From a virus: a stretch of 12,343 bases of DNA. Positions 1-12,343 of this stretch are shown here, in pieces. The notes beneath the pieces were generated by a model, which was not told the origin of the DNA, made no database searches, and saw only the letters and a program-made list of their open reading frames with translations. The stretch lies in the UHGV virus genome UHGV-0377305. One strand, written 5' to 3'. The translations under genes were made by a program, and so were the position numbers. The number at the start of each line of letters is the position of its first letter. Within the stretch, counting starts at the first letter, position 1.

Positions 1-1002
1 ATCACCGAGCTGTTCAATATTGCGGGTTGGTATTTTGTAGAGCTGGGCGATTTTCCCCAGACTTTCTGACAGTTCATCAGCTGGCAGCTCAAAGGCTGTT
101 GCCGCCTTTGCTGCCGTACTGGCGAAGGCCAGCAGGTCACGTTTCTGGTCCTCCCAGCTGTCGTCAGGGTTTGCCACATTCATGCGCGCACCACCTTCAA
201 CCAGTGCGGCGAAGTCCACAGCACCGTTTTCCATTGGCAGCTGTTCACTGGCAGCTTTGATGGCATCCTGCATTTCGTAAAAACGCGCAGTGCGGTTGCC
301 ATTATCGTCACGCAGACCATTGACCTGCTTTGCCACACCTTTCATGGCATCTTCCATGCTGGTATAGCTTTTTACCGCCGCCATCACTGGCGCGCCCATT
401 GCCAGCCCTGCAGCCGTGGTGGTGGCTCCGGCTCCTGCGATGCGATCGCGCACTTCAAGCCGTCTTGAGTATTGTTCTCTGGCAGCGTTCATCCGTGCCT
501 GTTGTTCACCCAGACGTTTAAGTGCTTTTTTCTGGCCCGCCAGTGCCTGACGAGTTTCTTCGGCATTTTTCTTAAGTTCTCGCTGGGCACTACTGAGTTG
601 TCTGGTATCAATCCCTGATTCTTTAAGTGCCTGACGTTGTCTCTGGACCGCCCCCAACAAGCCGTTATAGGTCTGCTGAAGTTCCTGTACTCGTGTTTTG
701 GCCTGACTGAATAACTTTGCCTGCGCGGCGGTTGGCCTGTTAGTGGCAGCAAATTGTGTGGCGAGTTTTGCCGCCTCTTCGCGGGCTGCGTTCAGGTTGT
801 TGGCTGTTATGGCTAGTTGCGAGCGCGTCTTGCGAAATTCATCAATTCTGCCAGCCTGCTTATTCAGTTCTTTGAGGCTGTTTCGGGTATTCTGAATTGC
901 GCCAGCCAGCTCTTTCGAACTGGCCTGTGCAGCACGGAATGGGCGGGTGAGTTTGTCAACCGCATTAAGAATGACCTGCAGGCGCAGGTTATTATCACTC
1001 AT
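1..1002 (-). CDS. T: Tail tape measure protein (P2 gpT-like), N-terminal 334 codons; C-terminal part lies beyond the window start
   Basis: Minus-strand ORF opens with ATG (rc of 1000-1002) and reads MSDNNLRLQVILNAVDKLTRPF... with no stop to position 1 (1002 nt, exactly 334 codons). It sits immediately downstream of E/E' with the E' stop overlapping this ATG, as in P2. It is absent from the ORF track only because it runs off the window. Coiled-coil, Ala/Gln-rich composition fits a tape measure. Confidence 0.75.
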   Translation of the reverse strand, partial: MSDNNLRLQVILNAVDKLTRPFRAAQASSKELAGAIQNTRNSLKELNKQAGRIDEFRKTRSQLAITANNLNAAREEAAKLATQFAATNRPTAAQAKLFSQAKTRVQELQQTYNGLLGAVQRQRQALKESGIDTRQLSSAQRELKKNAEETRQALAGQKKALKRLGEQQARMNAAREQYSRRLEVRDRIAGAGATTTAAGLAMGAPVMAAVKSYTSMEDAMKGVAKQVNGLRDDNGNRTARFYEMQDAIKAASEQLPMENGAVDFAALVEGGARMNVANPDDSWEDQKRDLLAFASTAAKAATAFELPADELSESLGKIAQLYKIPTRNIEQLGD

Positions 1003-1431
1003 CGTTGGCCCCGCTTCTCTGAATCGCTTTATACCGCCATTCCAGCACTTCGGTCAGCGGCATAACGTCAGTAACGGATGGCGGCCAGTGAAAGATGGTG
1101 GCGATATCAGCCACCAGATCGTCAACCGTCAGGCTGTCGGTAAACCGGCAAGCACCGACTTCTTCAACAAAAAAGTGACAACCTCAACCGACATGGCAGT
1201 GAGATCTGCCGGGTCCATCTCTGCAATTTCCTGTGCAGTCAGTGCCGGACTGGAGATGCGGGGGATCACGGTCATCATCGCGTTCACATCCATATCCATA
1301 ATGGCCTGCAGGCGTGTACCGCGCAGCGCACCGGACTGCGGTTTACGCAGCACAATTTCGGTGATTTCTGTTTTACCGCGCTTGATGGGGGTATCCAGTT
1401 GAATAGTCTTTTCAGTCTGCTTATCGCTCAT
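995..1431 (-). CDS. gpE+E' fusion made by programmed -1 ribosomal frameshift (tail assembly chaperone, long form)
   Basis: The zero-frame codons TTT TTG inside T_TTT_TTG (minus-strand rc of 1168-1174) allow -1 slippage. The -1 frame then stays open for about 58 codons (FFVEEVGACRFTDSLTVDDLVADIATIFHWPPSVTDVMPLTEVLEWRYKAIQRSGANDE) and ends at a TGA (rc of 995-997) that overlaps the ATG of T. This is the same architecture as P2 E/E+E' and lambda G/GT. Confidence 0.65.
1129..1431 (-). CDS. E: Tail assembly chaperone gpE (P2 E-like)
   Basis: 100-aa minus-strand ORF (MSDKQTEKTIQLDTPIKRG...) between FII and T. It ends shortly after a TTTTTTG heptamer. Position and size match P2 gene E. Confidence 0.8.
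   Translation of the reverse strand: MSDKQTEKTIQLDTPIKRGKTEITEIVLRKPQSGALRGTRLQAIMDMDVNAMMTVIPRISSPALTAQEIAEMDPADLTAMSVEVVTFLLKKSVLAGLPTA
1168..1174 (-). other. Slippery heptamer T_TTT_TTG for -1 programmed frameshift (E to E')
   Basis: Plus strand reads CAAAAAA at 1168-1174, so the minus strand reads TTTTTTG in the X_XXY_YYZ register of the E reading frame. Confidence 0.65.
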
Positions 1432-1456
1432 TTTGCTGTCCTGTCAATTGGGTTCT

Positions 1457-1474
1457 GGCGCGGTATCCCGCGCC
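1457..1474 (-). other. Intergenic stem-loop between FII and E (7-bp GC stem, 4-nt loop)
   Basis: GGCGCGG-tatc-CCGCGCC on the plus strand, a perfect inverted repeat in the 54-nt FII-E spacer. No U-tract follows on the coding (minus) strand, so it is probably not a terminator. It may be an mRNA stability or processing element. Confidence 0.3.
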
Positions 1475-1485
1475 GTTCAGATATA

Positions 1486-2001
1486 TCAGAGGCCGAGGGC
1501 GTTGCGGTGCGCTTCCATCAGGTCCACACCGTCTACAATTTCCACCATGTTGATAAGGTCCACTTCATAGAGCACCTCACCATTGATGGTCAGCTTCGCG
1601 TAGCTGTTGGTACTGGTCACTTTGGTGGTGTTGCTTTCGCCCGTCTTCCACTCGCCGGAATCCACTTCTTTGTGACGTCCACGCACCACAAGCTCCACGG
1701 CCTGCACTTCCCCGGTATCGTCACGCTGGATAGAGCCGGTAAAGCGCAACTGGATACCATCCACCGTGGCTTTGCCCATCTGCTTAAACAGCAGCAGTTC
1801 AGTACCACCAATGGAAAATTCCGTATCCAGTGCGCCGTCATCCAGCCCCAGATCCACATCCACTGCACCCGGCATTCCGCCGCCGCGATACTTCTCATAT
1901 TTGCGGGTAAATTTCGGCAGCGTCAGCGACTCAACGATCCCCTGCCAGTTGTTCCCGTCATTAAACAGGTTCAGGTGTTTTAATTTGCGTGGTAAAGCCA
2001 T
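1486..2001 (-). CDS. FII: Tail tube protein (P2 gpFII-like)
   Basis: 171-aa ORF MALPRKLKHLNLFNDGNNWQG...GGGMPGAVDVDLGLDDGALD..., which closely resembles P2 FII as I recall it. It lies directly downstream of the sheath gene and has an ATG start. Confidence 0.9.
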   Translation of the reverse strand: MALPRKLKHLNLFNDGNNWQGIVESLTLPKFTRKYEKYRGGGMPGAVDVDLGLDDGALDTEFSIGGTELLLFKQMGKATVDGIQLRFTGSIQRDDTGEVQAVELVVRGRHKEVDSGEWKTGESNTTKVTSTNSYAKLTINGEVLYEVDLINMVEIVDGVDLMEAHRNALGL

Positions 2002-2010
2002 GTTGTCCCC

Positions 2011-3183
2011 TTACGCGCTGACCTGGCTGGAGAAATTAACCAGGTACTGATCGGTGATGCGCTGACGCAGCATCAGGTTTTCAAGTGGCGGCACTGGCGT
2101 GTAGTCGTAGTCGATGGTGAGTTTTCCGGCTTTCAGCGTGTCTTTGTCGTTCACCGACTCATCCAGCCAGCAATCACCACCAATGAGATAGCCCTGACTG
2201 ACCAGGCTGCGCATTTTGGCGCGGATACCCTCGATAATGTCGCGGGCCAGCGACGGATTCAGCGGTTTATCCACCGCCCACATGTGCGCTTCTGCCATCG
2301 TGTCCGTCAGCACCTGCGCCGTGCGGGTGTAGTTTTCGAAGGCAAAGAGCGGGTCATCACTCAGGCAGCGGGAACCCCAGAAGCGAAAACCGTCTTTGCG
2401 GATAAGGGTGGTGACGTCGTTCTGGTTCAGCAGTCCCGCATCGGTTGCCGGGTCCTGCAGATCCCAGAACACATCAGCAGAAATTCCGGTGACACCGTTA
2501 ACGCCCACGTTGGACAGGCTTTTGTGCCATCCGGTCTGCTCGTCAATTTTGGCGCGCAGACCAAGCGCACGGGCGGTGGCATAAGCCGTTGCTTCGGCAT
2601 TCAGCACCGTGTCCCAGCCAGTAAAGTCGGGCCAGATCAGCATTCCTTCACGCTGACTGAAGTTTTCACGGTAAGTGATTGCTTCCTGCACCGTCTTGCA
2701 ACCATACGCTGACAGGTAAGCAAATCCACGCAGGCTTTGCGCCACACTCAGCAACTCAGTAGCTACCGCCTTCGTGTCGTGACCTGGCACGCCGAGAATG
2801 CGCGGTTTAACGCCGAGCTGTGACTGGGCAGATAACAGGGCTTTCATGCCTGTTTTTTTACCTTCAGCGGTCACTGCGCCGATGATATTGGTCGTGGTTT
2901 CGTCTTCCGTTTCACCCTGCGGCACACGCACAACAATGGTCACGGGTTTTGCCTGGTCAGCGATGGCATCCAGCGAACGAGCCAGCGTGCCTGACTCACC
3001 CGCTTTACCGCTGGCAGTCAGCACATCAGTGATCAGCACGGGTTTATTAAGAGGAAACATTTTTGCATCGGCATCATCGCCCGTGCAGACCATACCCACG
3101 ATGGCGGTGCTCACCGTGGTAATGGATCGGGTGCCTTCGTTGACTTCAACAACGCGCACCCCGTGGTGGTAATCCTGAGCCAT
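2011..3183 (-). CDS. FI: Contractile tail sheath protein (P2 gpFI-like)
   Basis: 390-aa [36 protein letters not shown]...[31 protein letters not shown]...[24 protein letters not shown], matching conserved P2 FI blocks from memory. A strong SD (AGGAGG, rc of 3193-3198) lies 9 nt upstream of the ATG. Confidence 0.92.
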
Positions 3184-3259
3184 AGTGGCGAACCTCCTGA
3201 TTGGATTAGGCTTCGCCCTATGTTGAAGTGATTGTGCCTGACAAACAGCTAAGCGCAGT

Positions 3260-3277
3260 TGTACCGTTATTCACACA
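3260..3277 (-). promoter_or_regulatory. Candidate Ogr/Delta-type late promoter activator site (TGT-N12-ACA dyad) upstream of FI
   Basis: Minus strand reads TGT-GTGAATAACGGT-ACA (plus-strand tgt at 3260-3262 and aca at 3275-3277, 12-nt spacer), centred about 85 nt upstream of the FI ATG, in the pin-FI intergenic region. P2 late promoters carry this dyad near -55. The motif is short and can occur by chance. Confidence 0.4.
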
Positions 3278-3325
3278 AAATGACGGTATTTGTCTGCTTT
3301 CAGGGATAATCAAAATAAAGCTGAT

Positions 3326-3892
3326 TCAGGGAGATTTATTGTTCTTATTTGCCGGAAATTTTCGATAAATGGTAGAAACGCCTACATCAAAAATCAGTGC
3401 AATACGCTGTCTTGATTCTCCGTCCTCGAGTAAACGCCCAATCTGTGCCCACTGTTCGCTGGTCAACTTAGGACGGCGTCCACCTACTCTGCCTTTAGCA
3501 CGAGCTGCAGCCAGCCCCGCCCTGGTACGTTCAACTATCAGTTCGCGTTCCATTTCAGCCAGGGCACCCATGACATGAAAAAAGAAACGGCCCATTGGGG
3601 TGCTGGTATCAATACTGTCAGTCAGGCTTCGGAAATTCACGCCACGCTGGCGCAGCTCTTCTATCAGCGTAACAAGATGCCGCATACTGCGCCCCAGTCT
3701 GTCCAGCTTCCAGACAACCAGCGTGTCTCCTGCCGATAGTGTCCTGAGCAGCTTTTTCAGCCCCGGTCTGTCGGACTTGGTGCCACTGATTTTATCCTCA
3801 AAAATCCGCTCACATCCCGCACAGTTCAGTGCATTGCGTTGCAAATCGGTGTTCTGGTCATTTGTTGACACGCGTACATAGCCAATAAGCAT
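3326..3892 (-). CDS. Serine site-specific DNA invertase (Gin/Pin/Cin/Hin family)
   Basis: ORF MLIGYVRVSTNDQNTDLQRNAL...DRLGRSMRHLV...GRFFFHVMGALAEMERELIVERTRAGL... carries the resolvase/invertase catalytic N-terminus (the serine in YVRVSTNDQ) and a C-terminal HTH. The track ORF starts two codons earlier (MIM...); the second ATG matches the paralog's start. Confidence 0.9.
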   Translation of the reverse strand: MLIGYVRVSTNDQNTDLQRNALNCAGCERIFEDKISGTKSDRPGLKKLLRTLSAGDTLVVWKLDRLGRSMRHLVTLIEELRQRGVNFRSLTDSIDTSTPMGRFFFHVMGALAEMERELIVERTRAGLAAARAKGRVGGRRPKLTSEQWAQIGRLLEDGESRQRIALIFDVGVSTIYRKFPANKNNKSP

Positions 3893-3947
3893 GATCATCC
3901 CCCTGAATAAAAACCGGAGATGATGCCAGTTAGCCGTTATCTCTGCA

Positions 3948-3973
3948 TTTTCATAAACGTCGGTTTACGGGAA
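3948..3973. other. gix/cix-like 26-bp crossover site A (inverted partner of site B)
   Basis: TTTTCATAAACG-TC-GGTTTACGGGAA. The inner half, extended to a 17-mer CGGTTTACGGGAAACGG (3961-3977), is the exact reverse complement of 5370-5386. The site resembles the Mu gix consensus (TTCCTGTAAACCGAGGTTTTGGATAA, from memory). It lies between the invertase start and the Sv cassette. Confidence 0.6.
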
Positions 3974-4327
3974 ACGGTAAATAAGGCCGCTGATGCCCTG
4001 CCATCGGGGGGAACCGCCGTGGCAGCAAACAGACTCGCCACCCCAAGAAATATTAATGGTGTTCCTTTCGACGGGACGCGGGATATAAACATTACGTCAG
4101 GAATGCCGGAATCAACGGCCAATCAGCGTTATGTTACAGGGGTAAGACTGGGAGCGCAGGCATTAAGCGGCGTACTGGAATATAATTACTCCCTGTCATC
4201 AGGAAATGTGATTACCGGTTTTAAGACTGACGGAGACTGGGAAATGCGTGGTGGTGATGACCGTGTTTATTACAGACAGATACAATATTGTATTAATGGG
4301 AATTGGGTATCCGCTGCAAGTATTTAA
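3962..4327 (+). CDS. Tail-fibre C-terminal variable cassette (Sv); no constant N-terminal part attached in this orientation
   Basis: The open frame begins inside crossover site A (GLRETVNKAADALPSGGTAVAANRLATPRNINGVPFDGTRDINITSGM...). The first roughly 50 residues are homologous to the start of the opposite cassette, then the two diverge. The only in-frame ATGs upstream (3920, 3923) have no usable SD spacing. Reported as a cassette, not an independent gene. Confidence 0.6.
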   Translation, partial: GLRETVNKAADALPSGGTAVAANRLATPRNINGVPFDGTRDINITSGMPESTANQRYVTGVRLGAQALSGVLEYNYSLSSGNVITGFKTDGDWEMRGGDDRVYYRQIQYCINGNWVSAASI

Positions 4328-4447
4328 TTAACGGCTCATGGCGTACGGCAGGCAGCGCCTGATATATGCGTTATCTCAGACAACCCCTGTCCGTATATAG
4401 CGATAGTATTATTCCTGTTTTTATCATTGATTCACATGGTGATGTTT

Positions 4448-4969
4448 ATGCAACTGATTAATGTTAAACGATATTACCCGGAAAATACCCTCTATGGTAA
4501 TGATGTACAGTATTTTCAGAGTGAAGATGGTAAGGATTTCTACGAGTCCCTGCCATTATTCACAAAAAAATATAAACTTTGTATAACACCTGACAGCGGC
4601 ATTATCTGCTCAATATCACAGGACGCTTCGGCGCTGTATCCTGCGGGGTTCTCTGTGGTTGAAGTCGACGAACTCCCTGAAGGTGCTGATATTTCGGGTA
4701 ACTGGAAGTTTGATAATGGCGTGATCTCCCGTATTCCGGTTAACTACGCAAGAAAACTGGAAGCAATGCGCCAGTCATATCTTAATCAGGCATATGAAAA
4801 AATTAATGACTGGAGAACAGAATTACAGCTGGGCACCATCAGTGATGAAGACAGAGCCGCACTTACCCGATGGATGGCATACATCAGTCAGGTGAAAAAA
4901 ATGGAACTACCAGCGATTAAAAACAAAGCTGAATTTGACGACATTAAATGGCCGGAGAAGCCTGAATAA
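4448..4969 (+). CDS. Tail fibre assembly protein (Tfa/gpG/U-like chaperone)
   Basis: ORF MQLINVKRYYPEN...SEDGKDFYE...GFSVVEV...DWRTELQLGTISDEDRAALTRWMAYISQV... has the conserved Tfa layout and the C-terminal Tfa motif. It lies immediately downstream of Sv on the same strand. The track ORF starts at an upstream TTG (4427); the ATG at 4448 is the more likely start. Confidence 0.8.
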   Translation: MQLINVKRYYPENTLYGNDVQYFQSEDGKDFYESLPLFTKKYKLCITPDSGIICSISQDASALYPAGFSVVEVDELPEGADISGNWKFDNGVISRIPVNYARKLEAMRQSYLNQAYEKINDWRTELQLGTISDEDRAALTRWMAYISQVKKMELPAIKNKAEFDDIKWPEKPE

Positions 4970-4972
4970 CGT

Positions 4973-4996
4973 AAAGGGTGCTTATCGCACCCTTTT
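4973..4996. terminator. Bidirectional intrinsic terminator between convergent tfa and Sv'
   Basis: Perfect 9-bp stem AAAGGGTGC-ttatc-GCACCCTTT followed by T on the plus strand, with a T-rich stretch on the minus strand. It sits in the 34-bp gap between the tfa stop (4969) and the Sv' stop (5004). Confidence 0.6.
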
Positions 4997-5003
4997 CCTT
5001 TAA

Positions 5004-5385
5004 TCAGACGGATGAAACTGTGCGCCAGGCATTACCGATATATATCTGCACCGGACGGTAATAAACGCCTCCGATATTATCGGCTGAATTTCTCCCGGTC
5101 TCCTGCACGTTAATACCTGAAAGCATACAACCGGAAGGCGCGCCATAACTCCAGGACATTTCATTACCTCCGGGTGAATGGTAACTCTGGGCACCAAGCT
5201 GAACGTTGCGAACGTATTTGTTATCAGCAGCAGCTTCGGTCATACCGGAGGTAATGTTGATATCCTGCGTTCCGTCAAAGGGAACACCATTAATTGTGTG
5301 GGCATTTGCCAGCCTGTTCGCGGCAACGGCCGTTCCGTTCGATGGCAGGGCATTCGCCGCCCTGTTTACCGTTTCCCGTAAACCG
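5004..5385 (-). CDS. Alternative tail-fibre C-terminal variable cassette (Sv'), start-less
   Basis: The minus-strand frame opens just inside site B, immediately after an in-frame TGA, and reads NLGLRETVNRAANALPSNGTAVAANRLANAHTINGVPFDGTQDINITSGMTEAAADNKYVRNVQLGAQSYHSPGGNEMSWSYGAPSGCMLSGINVQETGRNSADNIGGVYYRPVQIYIGNAWRTVSSV. Its N-terminal part is homologous to Sv and the C-terminus is different. No start codon or SD is at the cassette head. Confidence 0.6.
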
Positions 5386-5399
5386 AGGTTTCAGGGATG
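5374..5399. other. gix/cix-like 26-bp crossover site B
   Basis: TTCCCGTAAACC-GA-GGTTTCAGGGAT, matching Mu gixL (as recalled) at about 20 of 26 positions. It lies in inverted orientation to site A, 54 bp upstream of the second invertase ATG. Confidence 0.65.
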
Positions 5400-5452
5400 C
5401 CGTATATCTGCTTTAAAAAGCATTTCCACCTCTTTTTAAGGAAGGTAAATAC

Positions 5453-6013
5453 ATGCTGATTGGCTATATACGCGTATCAACAAATGACCAGAACACAGGT
5501 TTACAAAGAAATGCGCTGGAATGTGCAGGATGTGAGCAGATTTTTGAAGACAAAATGAGTGGTAAAACGACGCAGCGGCCGGGACTGAAGCGGGCACTGA
5601 AGAAACTAAAACCCGGCGACACACTGATGGTCTGGAAACTGGACAGGCTGGGGCGCAGTATGCGCCACCTTGTTGCGCTGACAGATGAATTACAGCAACA
5701 GGGGATAAATTTTCGTAGTCTTACTGACAACATTGATACGTCAACCCCCATGGGGCGCTTCTTTTTTCACATAATGGGTGCGCTGGCAGAAATGGAGCGT
5801 GAATTGATTGTCGAACGGACACGGGCTGGTCTTGCTGCTGCCCGTGAAAGGGGACGAACCGGCGGCAGACCCCGTCGTCTCACGCAGGAACAATACGAGC
5901 AGGTCGGGCGTTTACTGGCCGGGGGTGTCAGCCGAAGACAGGTGGCACTTATTTTTGATATCGGCCTTTCAACCCTTTATCGTTATTATCCTGCGAGCGT
6001 TTCGGAAAAATAA
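5453..6013 (+). CDS. Serine site-specific DNA invertase (Gin/Pin/Cin/Hin family), second paralog
   Basis: ORF MLIGYIRVSTNDQNTGLQRNALECAGCEQIFEDK...DRLGRSMRHLV...GRFFFHIMGALAEMERELIVERTRAGLAAARERG..., with an SD AAGGAAGG upstream. It is about three-quarters identical to the 3326-3892 invertase by eye (not computed) and is transcribed away from the cassette region. Confidence 0.9.
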   Translation: MLIGYIRVSTNDQNTGLQRNALECAGCEQIFEDKMSGKTTQRPGLKRALKKLKPGDTLMVWKLDRLGRSMRHLVALTDELQQQGINFRSLTDNIDTSTPMGRFFFHIMGALAEMERELIVERTRAGLAAARERGRTGGRPRRLTQEQYEQVGRLLAGGVSRRQVALIFDIGLSTLYRYYPASVSEK

Positions 6014-6112
6014 GACGCTCTCTTTGTTGGGCCTTTACTGAATTAACGCAAAATGGCGTTTATCGGTCTGTGGATATGATAATTCTGTTTATTCAGGAAC
6101 AGGCTGATTATT

Positions 6113-8152
6113 ATGACGTCCAAATGGGTTCAACTATCATCAATGCCCGGAAACTTTACTGTTAAAGTTTCCGGTGGTACAGCGGCATTTCTTGAGGCTC
6201 CCTTTCCTCCGGCCGAAACAAAAGGAGGAATGACATTTGCTGACTGTCTCATCAGTTTTAATACACGGGATTGCCTGTGGGTAAGGCCAGTATCCGGTGA
6301 TCCGAGCGTGGAAATTACCGGTGCGGGTATTGGTGCTGTCATTCCGTTAAGTGCTGATGTTGCCGGTACTGCTGAACCGTCAGACTGGGATAATGCTGAA
6401 ACACATACCCGTCCGTCAGGAAATGAAACTGCTTCCAGCTCCCCTTCCTGGTATTACGTGGTGGTTCTTGCTGGTCAGTCAAACGGGATGGCCTACGGTG
6501 AAGGTCTGCCGCTGCCGGAGACATATGACCACCCCGAACCGCGTATTATGCAGTTAGCCCGTCGCAGTACAGTCACGCCGGGAGGTAAAGCCTGTCAGTA
6601 TAACGACATCATTCTGGCCGACCACTGTCTGCATGATGTGCAGGATATGAGTGGAAAAAATCACCCGAAAGCGGATGTGGCTAAAGGGCAATATGGCACC
6701 GTGGGTCAGGGGCTTCACATTGCCAAAAAACTGCTGCCGTTTATTCCGGCAGATGCGGGGATTCTGCTGGTTCCCTGCTGCCGTGGTGGTTCTGCATTCA
6801 CGGCGGGTGCTGACGGCACGTACAGTGACAGCACGGGTGCTTCAGAGGACTCAGCCCGCTGGGGTGTGGATAAGCCGCTGTATAAGGACTTAATCAGCCG
6901 GACAAAAGCGGCACTGGCGAAGAACCCGAAAAACCGCCTGCTTGCTGTGGTGTGGATGCAGGGCGAGTTTGATATTGATGCGAAGCCGACGGAGCATTCC
7001 GCGCTGTTTCTGGCGATGGTGGAAAAATTCCGCGCAGACCTGGCTGAACAGGCGGAACAGTGTACCGGTGGCAGTGCTGCTGGCGTTCCGTGGATTTGTG
7101 GCGATACCACGTATTTCTGGAAACAGAAAAACGAACAGGCATACCAGGCAATCTATGACGGCTACAAAAATAAAACAGATAAAAACATTCATTTCGTCCC
7201 ATTAATGACAGATGAAAATGGCGCGAATGTACCCACCAACAATCCGACAGAAGACCCGGATATTGAATCCATTGGTTATTACGGCTCAACGTGGCGTAAC
7301 AGTGCCGCCACCTGGACATCTGCGGGCCGGGCCAGCCATTTCAGTTCATGGGCACGTCGTGGGATTATTTCCGACCGTCTGGCCACGGCTGTTCTGACTC
7401 ATGCAGGGCGAACCACAGTAAAAGCCGATGTTCCATCTTCTGAAACTGAAGCACCAGTGCCGTCACCTTCAGAAACTGAAGCAGTAACCACAACACTGCT
7501 GTCTTACCGTGTCAGTGAGTCAGAAGGAAATCTGAAAGCCCAGGGCTGGGAGCCGGCTGGCGGTAAAGCTGAAATTATCAGTGATGCAGGAGGCACAGGT
7601 GGTAAGGCAATGAAACTGACCAAGGAAACAGGTAAATCATCCTGGTATCTGGATCATGATGCCGGTACTGGTGCTGAACTGCTGAAAAATGGTGGTTTAA
7701 TCAGTTGTCGTTTTAAAGTACCTGGCGACCTGGTGGCAAACCAGTATGTCATGGCGCTTTACTGGCCGGTTTCCTCTCTGCCGCAGGGTGTCACCCTGAC
7801 AGGGGATGCAGGGAATAATCTGCTGGCATCGTTCTACATCCAGACAGACGCAAAAGACCTGAATGTGATGCACCACAATGCAAAAGTGGCAACAAATAAC
7901 CAGAAACTGGGAACCTTTGGTGTATTTGATAATGAATGGCATACGCTGGCCTTCCGTTTTGCAGGAAATAACAGCCTTCAGGTTATTCCGGTTATTGATG
8001 GTCAGGATGGTGCCGCGTTTACCCTGACGCAGTCACCAGTAGGAACTTTCCCGGTGGACAAACTCCGCGTAACGGATATCACCAAAAATGCAACTTACCC
8101 GGTGCTGATTGACAGCATTGTGGTGGAAGTGAAAAAAGCGGTAACAGAATAA
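6113..8152 (+). CDS. Putative SGNH/sialate O-acetylesterase-domain protein (NanS / prophage NanS-p-like) with a C-terminal probable carbohydrate-binding domain
   Basis: 679-aa ORF. The central region carries VVVLAGQSNGMAYGEGLPLP...LLVPCCRGGSAFT...VVWMQGEFD...WICGDTTYFW, i.e. the GQSN block and downstream blocks typical of sialate O-acetylesterase (SASA/DUF303) domains. A Ser/Thr/Pro/Glu linker (SETEAPVPSPSETEA) precedes an approximately 230-aa C-terminal domain. Function is assigned from motifs only. Confidence 0.6.
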   Translation: MTSKWVQLSSMPGNFTVKVSGGTAAFLEAPFPPAETKGGMTFADCLISFNTRDCLWVRPVSGDPSVEITGAGIGAVIPLSADVAGTAEPSDWDNAETHTRPSGNETASSSPSWYYVVVLAGQSNGMAYGEGLPLPETYDHPEPRIMQLARRSTVTPGGKACQYNDIILADHCLHDVQDMSGKNHPKADVAKGQYGTVGQGLHIAKKLLPFIPADAGILLVPCCRGGSAFTAGADGTYSDSTGASEDSARWGVDKPLYKDLISRTKAALAKNPKNRLLAVVWMQGEFDIDAKPTEHSALFLAMVEKFRADLAEQAEQCTGGSAAGVPWICGDTTYFWKQKNEQAYQAIYDGYKNKTDKNIHFVPLMTDENGANVPTNNPTEDPDIESIGYYGSTWRNSAATWTSAGRASHFSSWARRGIISDRLATAVLTHAGRTTVKADVPSSETEAPVPSPSETEAVTTTLLSYRVSESEGNLKAQGWEPAGGKAEIISDAGGTGGKAMKLTKETGKSSWYLDHDAGTGAELLKNGGLISCRFKVPGDLVANQYVMALYWPVSSLPQGVTLTGDAGNNLLASFYIQTDAKDLNVMHHNAKVATNNQKLGTFGVFDNEWHTLAFRFAGNNSLQVIPVIDGQDGAAFTLTQSPVGTFPVDKLRVTDITKNATYPVLIDSIVVEVKKAVTE

Positions 8153-8158
8153 AAAAAA

Positions 8159-8187
8159 TCCCGCCGGTCATGATATGGCTGGCGGGA
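8159..8187. terminator. Hairpin after the esterase gene (A8 tract upstream; U-tract only on the minus strand)
   Basis: TCCCGCCGG-(11-nt loop)-CTGGCGGGA, a 9-bp stem with one G-U pair. On the plus strand it is preceded by AAAAAAAA and not followed by a T-run. On the minus strand it is followed by T8. It may act bidirectionally. Confidence 0.3.
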
Positions 8188-8301
8188 GCTACCTAACCCA
8201 TAAAGGAAAATAAAAATACTCCCGAAGGAGTAGTTACCAGTCACTTCGTCATGTTTTTACCCGATAACGAATTATGTAGTCAATATCAAAGGTAAGGTTA
8301 T

Positions 8302-8484
8302 ATGACATTCGTTCATACAATGCTGCTTTATTTCTGCGCTGTGGTCAGTGCGTTATATCTGGTGAGCGGCGGTTATAAGGTCATCAGAAATTATATTCGC
8401 CGCAAAATTGATGACGCAGCAGCCGAAAAGCTCAGTAAAACAGCACAGGCACCATCATCCCCAAACGACCCGACCCCGCTCTGA
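8302..8484 (+). CDS. Hypothetical small membrane protein (60 aa, one predicted TM helix)
   Basis: ATG start with AAGG upstream. Hydrophobic N-terminus MLLYFCAVVSALYLVSGG followed by a basic and polar tail. No family recognised. Confidence 0.5.
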   Translation: MTFVHTMLLYFCAVVSALYLVSGGYKVIRNYIRRKIDDAAAEKLSKTAQAPSSPNDPTPL

Positions 8485-8519
8485 TAACGGGGCAATATAC
8501 CTGCAAAAGGAGAATATTC

Positions 8520-8765
8520 ATGCCAGAGATTAAAGGCACGGTTACTGAAGAGCTTGTCAAACAGGCACTTTATTCTGAAGAAGTGAACCGCGTGCTGAAG
8601 GCGCAGGTTCGCAAGGATTTTGAGGCACAAATCGACGCATATGTTGATGAAGTGCTGGCCCGAATGGTTGGCCGTTCTCCGGCTGAAAACAGCACGGAAA
8701 ATGCTCCTCAACCCGTAGAGCAACCAGAGCCGGTTCAGCCCGGAACTGACGGTACTATGATGTAA
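8520..8765 (+). CDS. Hypothetical protein (81 aa, acidic Pro/Glu-rich C-terminus)
   Basis: Strong SD AAGGAG 8 nt upstream of the ATG, and a perfect hairpin immediately downstream. No family recognised. Confidence 0.6.
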   Translation: MPEIKGTVTEELVKQALYSEEVNRVLKAQVRKDFEAQIDAYVDEVLARMVGRSPAENSTENAPQPVEQPEPVQPGTDGTMM

Positions 8766-8774
8766 CAATACCGA

Positions 8775-8805
8775 CCGGCAGGTTTCCCTGCCGGGTGAAT
8801 TTGTT
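8775..8805 (+). terminator. Probable intrinsic terminator after the 81-aa ORF
   Basis: Perfect 8-bp stem CCGGCAGG-tttc-CCTGCCGG followed by the T-rich GTGAATTTGTT, 10 nt after the stop codon. Confidence 0.45.
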
Positions 8806-9119
8806 AATGCACGTTTTGTGTATTTTCCCTCTGGGGAGAACAGGCAGGGCATATCAGCATCCTGAAACAGGAAGCATTTTTTGGTTTGTATGTCTTGCCA
8901 TTTTGAGATCGAGAACGGCGATAGATGAGCTGTAAGGGAGTCTTACAGGCAGGGTAAACAGGCTCTTTATCCATGATAAAGATCTCCTTTTTATGCATCT
9001 CTGCTTTACAGGAGACCGGGGAATATCATAGGATACGCCACGAGCTCGAAGTAAAGCATTGATGCAAAATTGTCTAAATCGGCCCAGAATAGTTCGCGCT
9101 ATCTGGGTCGCCCTTTATG

Positions 9120-9155
9120 TATGTAGTATCCCATTGATTTGAAACATACTACATA
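9120..9155. promoter_or_regulatory. 10-bp inverted repeat with 16-bp spacer (candidate operator)
   Basis: TATGTAGTAT-(16 nt)-ATACTACATA in the AT-rich region about 230 bp upstream of com. Confidence 0.25.
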
Positions 9156-9197
9156 TACGCACAATCCTACCTTCACTGTATAAAAAGTCAATAAAAT

Positions 9198-9340
9198 GAT
9201 CATTTTATGATCGTTTTCACCACCTAACTCTTCGTTTTCTTTAAGTAAATAATCACCGCCCTGAATCATTGTTGATGACTTTTCAATCTATTTGTTGTAT
9301 CAATTAAACAAACCGAATCGATCGTTTTTGTCGATCGATT
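9198..9340. promoter_or_regulatory. GATC (Dam-site) cluster with palindromes upstream of com, a candidate methylation-sensitive control region
   Basis: Four GATC sites in about 140 bp (9198, 9209, 9320, 9333). Two sit in the palindrome AAAATGATCATTTT and its neighbour, and two in the 9-bp-arm inverted repeat AATCGATCG-tttttgt-CGATCGATT (9316-9340), about 45 bp upstream of the com ATG. This recalls the GATC/OxyR region of the Mu mom promoter. Confidence 0.35.
9293..9310 (+). promoter_or_regulatory. Candidate Ogr/Delta-type late-activator dyad (TGT-N12-ACA) upstream of com
   Basis: TGT-TGTATCAATTAA-ACA, centred about 82 nt upstream of the com ATG. This is the same dyad geometry as upstream of FI. 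Chance occurrence is possible. Confidence 0.3.
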
Positions 9341-9383
9341 GCATGAGAAAGGCATCAACAACAAAGCAGGAGGTTATGCGGCC

Positions 9384-9569
9384 ATGTATCGAAACATACG
9401 GTGCCGACACTGCAATAAGCTACTGGCACGGGCCAGTTTCAGTTATCTGGAAGTAAAATGTCCGCGCTGCAAAACCCTCAATCAAATCACATCTCAGAGC
9501 GCCACAGAGCACCCCACATACACAAGGAAATCCTGCCGTGGGGAACAAGAAACATTACTTTCAGTCTGA
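9384..9569 (+). CDS. com: Com-like zinc-ribbon translational activator (Mu Com family)
   Basis: 61-aa ORF MYRNIRCRHCNKLLARASFSYLEVKCPRCKTLNQITSQSATEHPTY... with the Com-type CxxC...CPRC zinc ribbon and an EHPT motif, as recalled for Mu Com. AGGAGG lies 9 nt upstream of the ATG. The 3' end overlaps the start of the downstream gene by 32 nt, as com overlaps mom in Mu. The track ORF begins at an upstream TTG (9339). Confidence 0.75.
   Translation: MYRNIRCRHCNKLLARASFSYLEVKCPRCKTLNQITSQSATEHPTYTRKSCRGEQETLLSV
9512..9543 (+). promoter_or_regulatory. Possible translation-inhibiting stem that sequesters the MTase GTG start (candidate Com target)
   Basis: CCCCAC (9512-9517) can pair with GTGGGG (9538-9543). 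The start codon lies in the 3' arm and the SD in the 20-nt loop. This is analogous in position to the stem-loop in mom mRNA that Com unwinds. The stem is only 6 bp. Confidence 0.3.
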
Positions 9570-10590
9570 TAAGTCACTAACCTATGGTTCAGTATGCAGT
9601 GGTATTGAAGCTGCGACAGTAGCCTGGAGCAATCTTGGCTGGAAAGCCAGATGGTTCAGTGAAATAGAGGACTTCCCGTCAACACTTCTTTCATATCGCT
9701 GGCCCCATATACCAAATCTTGGTGATATGGCTTTGCTTGCGCCTCGTATCAGGGATGGGCTTATTGAAGCACCAGATATTCTTGTAGGTGGAACTCCGTG
9801 TCAGGCATTCAGTATGTCAGGCAAACGAAAAGGCCTTTCAGATCCACGGGGGCAGTTAACACTGTCTTTTGTTGAACTGGCGAATCAGATAGATACCGTT
9901 CGGGCATCGCTCAATAAATCCCCCTCAATAATCGTATGGGAAAACGTCACAGGAGTTTTAAGTAGCCATGACAATGCATTCGGTCATTTTCTTGGTGCGC
10001 TGGCCGGAGCAGGTTGCGCATTACAGCCAGCAAGGAAAAGATGGGCAAACGCTGGTGTTGTGTCTGGACCATCGCGTATCGTCGCCTGGCGAGTACTTGA
10101 TGCCCAATATTTCGGAGTCGCCCAGGCTCGCAGAAGAGTGTTTGTTGTGGCAAGTGCTGGAAAAAGGCTCGATCCCGGAAAGGTATTATTTGAGTTCCCG
10201 CCTGTGTCGCAGGGCGATAAAAACTATTACGGAAAGAAGAAAAAATCCGAATCCCTTCTTGATCAAGGCATTGAAGGAAAATTGCACCGATATTGCCTTG
10301 AAGCATTGCCAAAACGAACAGGCACAGTAATAGCTGGCTATAACGGAACAACTAACCAGGACATGACTATGTCTGGTGGGCTCATAGTTGAAAGAGCGCC
10401 ATATTCAAGGGTTCGTAGGTTGACGCCAACCGAATGCGAGAGGCTACAAGGTTTTCCCGATGGATATACAGATATTCCATGGAAAAATTCATCTCCAGCT
10501 CATCGTTATAAGGCCATTGGAAATTCAATGCCTGTACCGGTCATGAAATGGATTGGTCGAAGAATACAGGAAGCGTTAAACGAAGTTTAA
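9538..10590 (+). CDS. DNA (cytosine-5)-methyltransferase
   Basis: 350-aa ORF with canonical C5-MTase blocks: GGTPCQAFSMSG (PCQ catalytic motif IV), IIVWENVTG (ENV motif VI), QARRRVFVVA (motif VIII), RRLTPTECERLQGFPDGYT and AIGNSMPVPVMKWI (C-terminal motifs). The N-terminal GSVCSGIEAA stands in place of motif I. GTG start at 9538 with AAGGAAA 8-9 nt upstream; no alternative start exists in frame after the upstream stop at 9454. Confidence 0.88.
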   Translation: MGNKKHYFQSDKSLTYGSVCSGIEAATVAWSNLGWKARWFSEIEDFPSTLLSYRWPHIPNLGDMALLAPRIRDGLIEAPDILVGGTPCQAFSMSGKRKGLSDPRGQLTLSFVELANQIDTVRASLNKSPSIIVWENVTGVLSSHDNAFGHFLGALAGAGCALQPARKRWANAGVVSGPSRIVAWRVLDAQYFGVAQARRRVFVVASAGKRLDPGKVLFEFPPVSQGDKNYYGKKKKSESLLDQGIEGKLHRYCLEALPKRTGTVIAGYNGTTNQDMTMSGGLIVERAPYSRVRRLTPTECERLQGFPDGYTDIPWKNSSPAHRYKAIGNSMPVPVMKWIGRRIQEALNEV

Positions 10591-10608
10591 ACCTAAGCAA
10601 AAGACATT

Positions 10609-10914
10609 ATGAAGTTGGTTTTTGTGCCGTTAAAAGATGTCTTTAAGGAGTGCAAAGGAAAGCGCCAATTTAGTATCAAAAAAGATGCTTATCGGCGCTT
10701 TTCATCGGTATCAAATGAAATGCAAATCTGTATCAAAAAAATCGCCGCGCTATATACCCGAAAAGAAAACGTATTTACCAGTTGGGTGATGCGATTGCTG
10801 ATTGTTGTAAGTCTCGCCTGGACGGGGTGGGCTATTACCCTGGTCTTTTATCTACTGACCGTTATTGCCTTCTGGATCACCCGTAATCAGATGGCGCAAC
10901 AGGTAGCAGCATGA
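10609..10914 (+). CDS. Hypothetical protein; the C-terminal hydrophobic part may be a LysA-like remnant fused to unrelated N-terminal sequence
   Basis: 101-aa ORF. The N-terminal half is AT-rich, hydrophilic and lacks a clear SD. The C-terminal roughly 40 aa (WVMRLLIVVSLAWTGWAITLVFYLLTVIAFWI) is membrane-like and ends overlapping the lysB start (ATGA), the position lysA occupies in P2. Confidence 0.4.
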   Translation: MKLVFVPLKDVFKECKGKRQFSIKKDAYRRFSSVSNEMQICIKKIAALYTRKENVFTSWVMRLLIVVSLAWTGWAITLVFYLLTVIAFWITRNQMAQQVAA

Positions 10915-11339
10915 ACCGGTTACTGCTGGTTGTGCTGGCGTTATTACTGGCGGCGCTGGGCTGGCAGACGTGGCGGCTGGCTGATGCCAGCCAGACCATC
11001 AGCACGCAGGCAGACGAGCTGCAGAGCAAAAGCCAGGCACTGGCAAAGAGCAACAGCCAGCTTATCAGCCTGTCTATTCTGACTGAAACCAATAACCGGG
11101 AGCAGGCGCGGCTCTATGCCGAAGCAGAACAGACCAGCGCGCTGCTGAGACAACGACAACACCGGATCGAGGAACTGAAACGTGAGAACGAGGATTTACG
11201 CCGCTGGGCTGATACTCCTTTGCCTGCTGACATTATCCGGCTGCGGGAACGCCCCACACTCACCGGAGGTGCAGCTTACCGTCAGTGGTTGTCCGCGAGT
11301 GACGCCGTGTCGGCTGGATCAGGCAGCGCCGCGCACTAA
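10911..11339 (+). CDS. lysB: LysB (Rz-like inner-membrane spanin)
   Basis: 142-aa ORF with an N-terminal TM helix (LLLVVLALLLAALGW) followed by a coiled-coil, Gln/Glu/Arg-rich periplasmic region. It lies upstream of R and S with lysC embedded in the +1 frame, the P2 arrangement. Confidence 0.75.
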   Translation: MNRLLLVVLALLLAALGWQTWRLADASQTISTQADELQSKSQALAKSNSQLISLSILTETNNREQARLYAEAEQTSALLRQRQHRIEELKRENEDLRRWADTPLPADIIRLRERPTLTGGAAYRQWLSASDAVSAGSGSAAH

Positions 11340-11472
11340 CGGTGATCTGAATGCGTTGCTGGATGAAACGGAGGCCGCCTGGGCGGTCTGTGCAGACAAA
11401 GTGGATATGATTATTGCGTGTCAGGAGCGAAACAGTGAACAAACCACAATCCCTGCGCCACGCCCTCAATAA
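11182..11472 (+). CDS. lysC: LysC (Rz1-like outer-membrane lipoprotein spanin), embedded in and extending beyond lysB
   Basis: 96-aa ORF in a different frame from lysB, with signal peptide and lipobox (LLCLLTLSG-C) and a Pro-rich mature part. GTG start. Confidence 0.7.
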   Translation: MRTRIYAAGLILLCLLTLSGCGNAPHSPEVQLTVSGCPRVTPCRLDQAAPRTNGDLNALLDETEAAWAVCADKVDMIIACQERNSEQTTIPAPRPQ

Positions 11473-11866
11473 AGCAGTGCCTTATGTCCGCAATAACCCG
11501 GACAAACTGCATCTGTTTGTGGATAACGGTTCGCTGGTTGCCACGGGGGCCAGCTCCATGTCGTGGGAGTACCGTTACACCCTGAACGCGGTGATTGAGG
11601 ATTTCAGCGGCGACCAGAATCTGCTGATGGCCCCGGTTTTGCTGTGGCTGCGTGATAACCAGCCCGATGCCATCAATAACCCGGCGTTACGGGAAAAACT
11701 ATTCACCTTTGAGGTGGATATTCTGCGCAACGATGTCTGTGATATCAGCCTTAACCTGCAACTGACGGAGCGTGTGCTGGTCAGCACTGACGGTAGTGTG
11801 TCGAGCGTTGAAGCTATAGCGGAACCTGATGAACCTGAAGAAATGTGGACGGTGAAACGTGGCTGA
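11435..11866 (+). CDS. R: Tail completion protein R (P2 gpR-like)
   Basis: VNKPQSLRHALNKAVPYVRNNPDKLHLFVDNGS...LNAVIEDFSGDQNLLMAPVLLWLRDNQPD...LQLTERVLVS resembles P2 gpR as recalled. The likely start is GTG 11435 with AGGAG 8 nt upstream; the track ORF starts at TTG 11414. Confidence 0.85.
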   Translation: MNKPQSLRHALNKAVPYVRNNPDKLHLFVDNGSLVATGASSMSWEYRYTLNAVIEDFSGDQNLLMAPVLLWLRDNQPDAINNPALREKLFTFEVDILRNDVCDISLNLQLTERVLVSTDGSVSSVEAIAEPDEPEEMWTVKRG

Positions 11867-12305
11867 ACTGCAGAAAGTGGACGACTGGCTGAGTGCCTTG
11901 CTGGCGAATCTGGAACCAGCCGCCAGAAGCCGCATGATGCGCCAGCTGGCGCAGGAACTGCGCCGGACACAGCAGCAGAACATCAGGATGCAACGCAATC
12001 CTGATGGCAGCAGCTATGAACCGAGGCGAGTAACAGCACGCAGTAAAAAAGGCCGTATCAAACGGCAGATGTTTACAAAACTTCGCACCACAAAATACCT
12101 GAAAACCGCCGCCAGCGAGGATTCTGCCAGCGTGCAGTTTGAAGGTAAGGTGCAGCGCATTGCCCGCGTTCACCATTATGGCCTGCGTGATCGCGTCAGC
12201 CGCAAAGGACCGGAGGTCCGTTACGCAGAGCGTCGCCTTCTGGGTGTAAATGATGATGTTGAGGCAATGACCCGCGACATGATTCTGCAATGGTTGGCGG
12301 GGTGA
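11859..12305 (+). CDS. S: Tail completion protein S (P2 gpS-like)
   Basis: MAELQKVDDWLSALLANLEPAARSRMMRQLAQELRRTQQQNIRMQRNPDGS... resembles P2 gpS. The GTG start overlaps the R stop (GTGGCTGA), which suggests translational coupling. Confidence 0.85.
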   Translation: MAELQKVDDWLSALLANLEPAARSRMMRQLAQELRRTQQQNIRMQRNPDGSSYEPRRVTARSKKGRIKRQMFTKLRTTKYLKTAASEDSASVQFEGKVQRIARVHHYGLRDRVSRKGPEVRYAERRLLGVNDDVEAMTRDMILQWLAG

Positions 12306-12343
12306 TTTTTGTATCAGCAGTGATACAAGTTGCAGCACTGCCG

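Follow-up and report, generated by a model that had tools for sequence, protein, structure and literature searches.

Invertible tail-fibre switches of the classical G, C and P type consist of a segment whose inversion alternately fuses two cassettes to a fixed constant part of the fibre gene, and the serine invertases that act on them cut each crossover site at its 2-bp centre. Other arrangements are also known: Min of p15B combines one invertase with six sites in one evolved cluster, and shufflons use the tyrosine recombinase Rci. Mosaicism of the C-terminal tail-fibre cassettes, with exchange points at the crossover sites, is long established for Mu, P1, P2, e14 and p15B, and the mechanism by which such cassettes pass between unrelated phages has so far been mostly inferred. 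Here we examine a locus that bears on this mechanism, positions 3326-6013 of a 12,343-nt stretch of the UHGV virus genome UHGV-0377305 (the window, to which all coordinates refer unless another source is named), where two intact invertase genes are transcribed outward from a 1.4-kb segment carrying tail-fibre cassettes. The window probably represents the switch of a Mu-like phage, nested in a P2-like prophage, that was recombined by an invertase at the Mu site gixL with the switch of that prophage.

Crossover sites with TC and with TT centres have both been described, the TT class also in EC958 Phi2 (Table 3), and action in trans between prophages has been suspected (PMC4134206). Several prophage invertases are cross-acting: Fin works on hix, PinE on the Mu G segment and on hix, and PinQ on the e14 P segment (PMC12529663; PMC4134206, discussion). 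As would be the case at the present locus, the enzyme of one element there works on the sites of another; the difference is that in those cases a segment flips between its own two sites, whereas here each element would contribute one. Within a single strain, Mu and P2-like switches flip independently (PMC4272514). Passages of a study of ST131 wound isolates describe how GpH and Mup49/S, homologous fibre proteins of co-resident, invertase-carrying prophages, are altered by inversions and by a translocation (bioRxiv 10.1101/2022.05.07.487787); unlike the exchange considered here, the translocation in those passages is tied to a 70-bp repeat, and a nested prophage, a hybrid 26-bp site and a dual-invertase isomer are not described in them.

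Results

A hybrid crossover site at a mosaic border

The window is a mosaic of three parts, P2-like from 1 to 3966 (minus strand), Mu-like from 3956 to 10754, and again P2-like from 10755 to 12343 (plus strand), with sharp borders at the crossover site that we call site A and at 10754. The first part matches positions 19806-15841 of an Escherichia coli ED1a prophage (L006) at 99.77% identity in minus orientation, and phage Cartapus at 96.8%; the last part matches L006 8897-10485 at 99.56% in plus orientation. While the genes of P2-like phages follow the order lysA-lysB-R-S-V-W-J-I-H-G-(invertase)-FI-FII-E-T in one orientation, here the FI-FII-T block is inverted relative to lysB-R-S, with the Mu-like arm between them; gene content and the 99.6-99.8% identity nevertheless mark the flanks as a P2-like prophage. 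Since the two P2 parts, both nearly identical to one ED1a-type prophage, lie in opposite orientations, an inversion is needed to explain the arrangement, which neither a deletion nor an insertion can produce. The feature comprises the following elements.

3326-3898, minus strand: inv1, Gin-type serine invertase native to the P2-like phage, 190 aa (Resolvase and HTH_7; synteny)
3948-3973, TC centre on the plus strand: site A, hybrid 26-bp crossover site TTTTCATAAACG TC GGTTTACGGGAA (half-sites from two parents)
3920/3923-4327, plus strand: Sv fusion ORF with a fortuitous 13-codon leader (translation)
3961-4327, plus strand: Sv, tail-fibre C-terminal variable part of the Mu-like phage (translation; match to proteins P0012 and P0122)
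4427-4969, plus strand: tail-fibre assembly gene, tfa/U-like (Pfam Caudo_TAP, E=3e-19)
5004-5384, minus strand: Sv', alternative tail-fibre C-terminal part, silent here (translation; upstream in-frame TGA)
5373-5398, minus strand: site B, unaltered Mu-like gixR, ATCCCTGAAACC TC GGTTTACGGGAA (match to the Mu-like prophages L002 and L023)
5453-6013, plus strand: inv2, the Mu-like phage's Gin homologue, 186 aa (Gin structure match; position)

Site A combines the half-sites of two phage families. In five P2-like relatives the invertase-proximal site reads TTTTCATAAACG TT GGTTTGGGAGAA, and the left 12 nt of site A with their upstream flank are identical to it; Mu-like gixL reads TTATCGATAACC TC GGTTTACGGGAA, and the centre and right 12 nt of site A with their downstream flank are identical to that. 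Position 12 (G) is still specific to P2 and position 14 (C) already to Mu, which places the change of parent in the 2-bp centre; the DNA match to Mu-like prophages begins at 3956. Site B and its flank are the same as in L002 and L023. A hybrid site with opposed P2 flanks identifies the locus as the product of a rearrangement.

Homologous or illegitimate recombination in which no invertase took part might also be invoked, as phage tail-fibre genes are mosaic and homologous exchange among them is common. The breakpoint, however, is confined to 2-3 bp in the middle of a crossover site, with next to no homology on either side, and the topology, an inversion between inverted sites, fits the rule of the enzyme; we regard such an origin as highly improbable.

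Crossover sites, invertases and fibre cassettes

Sites A and B are 26 bp long, each with two imperfect 12-bp half-sites around a 2-bp centre, and are inverted relative to each other; the central dinucleotide is TC in both, read on the plus strand for A and on the minus strand for B. They share a 19-nt core, AAACNTCGGTTTACGGGAA, which occurs exactly twice, on opposite strands (expected 0.00 from 200 shuffles), and they are the only two crossover sites within the 12.3-kb window. The inverted repeat extends into both cassettes, over 84 nt at 82% and 60 nt at 83%. Both sites align to gixL and gixR of Mu, TTATCCAAAACC TC GGTTTACAGGAA, taken from the Mu genome NC_000929, and have the same TC centre; site B agrees with Mu gix at 22 of 26 positions and the inner (right) half of site A at 11 of 12. 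They also agree with the consensus for gix, cix and hix relatives in PMC4134206, Table 3. A strict division into TC centres for Mu-like and TT centres for P2-like elements was rejected, the Mu-like prophage L021 belonging to the TT class. Contig L015 breaks off at 5365, with the final base of a 20-nt perfect inverted repeat within site B, which suggests an assembly fork at B, with both orientations present in that sample.

Both invertase ORFs carry Pfam Resolvase (E=3e-53 and 1e-51) together with HTH_7 and are 74% identical over 186 aa. Each is a protein of about 190 aa with an N-terminal resolvase domain, the catalytic serine lying in YxRVST (GYVRVSTNDQ and GYIRVSTNDQ in the two enzymes), and a C-terminal helix-turn-helix. 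inv1 is syntenic with Cartapus gp23 and with the 190-aa invertase of L006, upstream of FI. inv2 matches two solved structures of Mu Gin, 3uj3 and 4m6f (E=2e-91; 3uj3 over residues 1-182), and holds the position of the recombinase in the Mu-like prophages L002, L021 and L023.

Between the sites lie two tail-fibre C-terminal cassettes and one assembly gene, with no constant region adjoining. The junction at site A gives Sv a 13-codon leader with an ATG at 3920/3923 and no fibre constant part; gene callers annotate the result as a 134-aa ORF, a version that is on record, while the 135-aa version from the ATG at 3920 has no record. The same Sv cassette is attached to Mu-like constant parts in P0012 and P0122. 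Sv' is preceded by a TGA two codons ahead of NLGLRETV, and both strain SW070917 and P0121 have an identical cassette attached to a Mu-like constant part. The single assembly gene (4427-4969) is co-oriented with Sv and none accompanies Sv' (5004-5384), so that one form of the fibre may need no dedicated chaperone.

These results bear out much of what an earlier reading of the sequence alone had proposed (the original prediction): two outward-facing serine invertases, recognisable by Resolvase/HTH_7 and by their 74% identity, flank inverted sites that share a core found twice and are related to gix; no constant region adjoins either cassette, both sites abutting invertase genes; and a stop codon stands in frame ahead of Sv'. 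Two details needed correction. The position given for site A was right, and that for site B was 1 nt off, the site lying at 5373-5398. The description of both cassettes as start-less does not strictly hold for Sv, which has acquired the leader and its ATG, though still no constant part.

Occurrence in independent assemblies

The structure recurs at 99.9-100% identity in at least two independent ENA metagenome assemblies, ERZ27281744 (15.3 kb) and ERZ27281703, and the junction between the Mu-like end and lysA in two further samples. No record in three collections, among them a phage collection and 5,426 complete E. coli genomes, spans the feature or either mosaic border. A 161-bp query across the site A junction had no spanning match in those 5,426 genomes, species-representative genomes contained no copy of a 93-mer across the site, and the site A 26-mer was absent from IMG/VR and the JGI metagenomes.

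All sources are short-read metagenome assemblies, and invertible segments are a known source of broken or confused assemblies (PMC4134206), so that a chimeric join at site A through a repeat common to two prophages had to be considered. The two parents, however, have only ~6 identical bases at the junction; the site A 26-mer is present in neither of them, so that reads must contain it; and three assemblies agree base for base across the site. We give an artefact of this kind almost no credence.

In a comparison of the window with contig L013, all 17 differences fall in the tube gene (14, at 1729-1882) and at the end of S (3, at 12294-12320). Their clustering suggests either a tract of recombination or, in that sample, a second P2-like prophage that was assembled together with the first.

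A proposed inversion between nested prophages

The parental switches are ordinary one-invertase, two-site G-type systems in their normal homes: the classical arrangement, in which inversion alternately fuses two cassettes to a fixed constant part, is present in the parental elements L002 and L006 and absent from the locus, where both sites adjoin invertase genes. That the Mu-like phage is inserted in lysA is indicated by its right end. Matches to Mu-like prophages all end at 10754/10755 and there meet differing contexts, namely ttdB, Stx phages, a lambdoid tail gene and, in the window, lysA; the same terminal base in unrelated insertion contexts marks 10754 as a transposon end. The arm also has gin, com and a modification gene near this end, as a Mu-like right arm should.

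In the proposed course of events, a Mu-like phage would have transposed into lysA of a P2-like prophage already in residence and taken the orientation of the P2 late genes, and either phage would have brought a Gin-type switch made up of a constant part, a site, invertible cassettes, a second site and an invertase. One of the two interchangeable invertases would then have recombined two sites, Mu gixL between Sc and Sv and the P2 site on the right, beside the P2 invertase. The two sites would have lain ~13.7 kb apart in inverted orientation, and the stretch between them would have been inverted. From the ED1a coordinates this stretch measures ~13.7 kb, of which 6.8 kb is Mu-like and 6.95 kb P2. 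If the order before the inversion is reconstructed, the P2 right site, whose centre reads AA on the strand that gives TC for Mu gixL, forms an inverted repeat with gixL, and the right-hand product expected from the pair, TTCCCGTAAACC GA CGTTTATGAAAA, equals the minus strand of site A base for base.

A swap of flanks at gixL yields two outward-facing invertases and no constant region. The window would hold one of the two new junctions, at which the left neighbour of the Mu segment is the P2 invertase with FI/FII and not the Mu constant part. At the reciprocal junction, ~5.4 kb beyond the window, the Mu-like constant part would stand in frame with a P2 cassette, and the P2 invertible segment would then be flanked by constant regions at both ends (P2 Hc and Mu-like Sc). 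Both phages keep one reading frame across the site (…L-G-L…), so that all four fusions of constant part and cassette are in frame; the same Collar cassette is attached to many different constant parts at …NLGLGE…. The 1.4-kb segment should still be able to flip, because the TC centres of A and B are inverted and both enzymes look intact, and in the present isomer this would have no coding consequence.

Several observations weigh against this proposal. The centre of the invertase-proximal site is TT in all five P2-like relatives and TC in site A, and the exchange was therefore probably made across a one-base mismatch (TT x TC), with the product fixed as TC. Recombination across a one-base central mismatch is known to be rare, and the difference requires either such a rare event or a parental site unlike that of every relative examined. 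Iida and Hiestand-Nauer are said to have found in 1986 and 1987 that Cin acting at quasi-cix sites gave large inversions in which the central dinucleotide was converted to that of one parent. As in the event proposed here, a cognate site would there have recombined with a non-identical one; the difference is that those were reportedly plasmid experiments with P1 Cin, whereas here the partner would be the bona fide site of a second phage and the setting a natural population. A further difficulty is that the contigs end in J and T, so that we infer the joining of both P2 parts in one prophage. For invertases of this class a recombinational enhancer bound by Fis is expected in cis, within the 5' part of the gene; the first 240 nt are conserved among inv1, inv2 and Mu gin, and a loose scan for Fis-like patterns gave no clear shared pair of sites.

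The reciprocal junction also escaped detection. Its predicted 26-mer, TTATCGATAACCTYGGTTTGGGAGAA, was absent from IMG/VR, the JGI metagenomes and representative genomes. None of 13 predicted hybrid proteins, which joined two variants of the Mu-like constant part to P2 cassettes and P2 Hc to Sv or Sv', was on record in an exact-sequence look-up. Two profile searches with the predicted hybrids gave no full-length match to a hybrid protein and returned ordinary Mu-like S, P2 H, and Mu-like S with P2-type cassettes from other lineages. A look-up of gpS was uninformative on this junction, the protein occurring in 2,976 blocks, and following P0121 led only to a normal Mu-like prophage in another sample.

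With contigs that stop in J and T, the same junction could have formed between two separate elements, gixL of a Mu-like prophage in one lysA recombining with the invertase-proximal site of a second P2-like prophage at another chromosomal location to produce a large chromosomal inversion in place of one of 13.7 kb. The mismatch clusters in FII and S on contig L013 hint at a second P2-like sequence in the samples, and several such elements are common in E. coli, with up to 12 matching places per genome. Against this, both P2 parts are almost equally near one ED1a-type prophage, and Gin and Hin invertases require both sites and the enhancer on one supercoiled domain, a requirement that favours sites 14 kb apart over distant loci. 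We consider an exchange between two separate elements unlikely.

Comparison with described switches

The locus shares with the Mu G segment (Gin, gixL/gixR) a close Gin homologue in inv2, TC-centred sites, and the succession of cassettes, gixR, gin, com with a modification gene, and right end. It differs in that its left site no longer abuts the S constant part, in having one tfa gene where Mu has U and U', and in the genes beyond, a SASA/DUF6645 gene following gin and a C5 methyltransferase taking the place of Mom. With the P2-like switches of Cartapus, the ED1a prophage, EC958 Phi2 and Fels-2 (Fin) it has in common inv1, the promoter-side flank and the left half of site A, whereas the centre and inner half of the site are Mu-like and the P2 cassettes lie away from the P2 invertase.

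According to the original prediction, the locus is part of a multi-site inversion system like Min or a shufflon. There is a likeness, in that more than two sites would lie within reach of a recombinase, four being predicted here, and several isomers would be possible. Such systems have at least three sites in a cluster, one dedicated recombinase and several C-termini for one gene, whereas the locus has two sites in 12.3 kb and two recombinases of different phage origin, and appears to be two independent two-site systems of two phages, joined by accident. Two intact invertases, compatible intact sites and in-frame cassettes would also be expected of an evolved system with two dedicated invertase paralogs and its constant region elsewhere, and multi-site P2-like switches do exist in E. 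coli (PMC4272514). Yet the two halves match the single-invertase switches of different phage families at 96-99.8% identity, site A changes parent at its centre, and the arrangement leaves the P2 late genes in two oppositely oriented blocks and parts the Mu-like right end from its body. Moreover, the junction is absent from the complete E. coli genomes and from IMG/VR, and has been seen only in a few near-identical metagenome contigs. An evolved multi-site system is thus very unlikely, and derivation from the one-invertase switches of a P2-like and a Mu-like phage is the more probable account.

The accompanying expectation that the H constant region and further sites lie outside the window was reasonable. 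V, W and J come after S on the longer contig L017, and in the ED1a prophage (99.6-99.8% identical) H begins 2.5 kb, and its two crossover sites lie 3.5 and 5.4 kb, past the point that matches the window end. The further sites are predicted to belong to the P2 switch.

The Mu-like arm and the P2-like flanks

The remainder of the window is occupied by P2-like genes on both sides and by the rest of the Mu-like right arm.

1-3183, minus strand: P2-like (Peduoviridae) tail genes, comprising the 5' part of the tape-measure gene, the E/E' region, FII and FI (Pfam families, L006 match)
1486-2001, minus strand: tube gene FII, P2-like
2011-3183, minus strand: sheath gene FI, P2-like
6113-10754, plus strand: rest of the Mu-like right arm (98-99.4% identical to Mu-like prophages)
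6113-8152, plus strand: SASA/DUF6645 protein (Pfam)
within 6113-10754, plus strand: DUF1378 and DUF826 genes (Pfam)
9339-9569, plus strand: Com (Pfam)
9538-10590, plus strand: C5 cytosine methyltransferase (Pfam)
10754, plus strand: right terminus of the Mu-like phage (common match endpoint)
10755-10914, plus strand: 3' fragment of lysA, where P2-like sequence resumes (L006 lysA at 8679-9056)
10911-11339, plus strand: lysB, P2-like
11414-11866, plus strand: R, P2-like
11859-12305, plus strand: S, P2-like

A chimeric ORF of 101 aa (10609-10914) runs from the Mu-like right end through 10754 into the 3' part of lysA; it is annotated as LysA and called as a gene in four assemblies. The left junction of the Mu-like phage is absent from the window and from every contig retrieved. 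Copies nested in other prophages were found as well: one lies in E. coli SW070917 (L023, 413-1072) in a lambdoid minor-tail gene beside ompC, and LC727895 and LC727881 contain copies of the same Mu-like phage inside Stx phages. Nesting in a resident prophage is thus not unusual for this Mu-like phage.

The SASA (sialate O-acetylesterase-like)/DUF6645 protein, of 679 aa, is encoded directly downstream of the gin homologue, a position conserved in many E. coli Mu-like prophages. The Com zinc-ribbon gene overlaps the start of the C5 methyltransferase gene (9339-10590) at the place where Mu, L021 and L022, a further Mu-like case described below, have com-mom; the pair is apparently an alternative DNA-modification module with the same translational-control layout.

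Discussion

The components of the locus are known ones of the Gin type; what is new is a natural recombinant isomer between elements with its breakpoint at the cleavage centre. Two further genomes provide parallel natural cases. In L022 (GCA_053436265.1, DBKPSW010000073.1; 6518-6543 of that sequence) a Mu-like fibre constant part is fused in frame at the crossover centre, TTATCGATAACC|TC|CGTTTTGAAGAG, to a gix-like quasi-site inside a fragment of an AAA_5 ATPase gene, and the right end from gin to com-mom is inverted behind the junction; this looks like an inversion between gixL and a quasi-site that reached beyond the prophage end. The Mu-like prophage L021 (GCA_011836255.2) carries a P2/e14-type invertible segment between sites at 10518-10543 and 12409-12434. 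Each of these sites has a Mu-type outer half, a TT centre and GGTTTGGGAGAA, the inner half of the P2 type, and it is within them that homology to other Mu-like prophages breaks off and resumes. L021 looks like the outcome of a completed segment exchange.

Two other arrangements were downgraded as examples of a reciprocal-type junction. In L020 (Logan SRR8924463; 10001-13299) an invertible segment lies between two convergent modules of Mu-like baseplate genes and constant part, and in L019 (GCA_053802295.1; 1-3448) a segment connects Mu-like Gp48 and a constant part with a P2 invertase and the genes from FI to ogr. Both come from short-read assemblies, where cassettes common to several elements may lead an assembler astray, and they could be either inter-prophage recombinants or chimeras of that kind.

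It is possible, and we suggest it only tentatively, that the window represents the half-way intermediate of a natural recombinase-mediated cassette exchange, of which L021-like prophages would be the completed products. A first inversion, between Mu gixL and the P2 right site, would swap the flanks; a second, between Mu gixR and the P2 left site, would restore both gene orders and leave the host-range segments traded.

The isomer itself should cripple both prophages unless the inversion reverts, the P2 late genes being split and the Mu right end inverted, and isomers of this kind confuse prophage and gene annotation and break short-read assemblies. If the window is indeed such an intermediate, cross-talk between invertases in polylysogens would be how tail-fibre cassettes actually pass from one phage family to an unrelated one. 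Together with L022 and L021, the locus would make that route a concrete and testable one: recombination by an invertase between elements that share a polylysogenic host.

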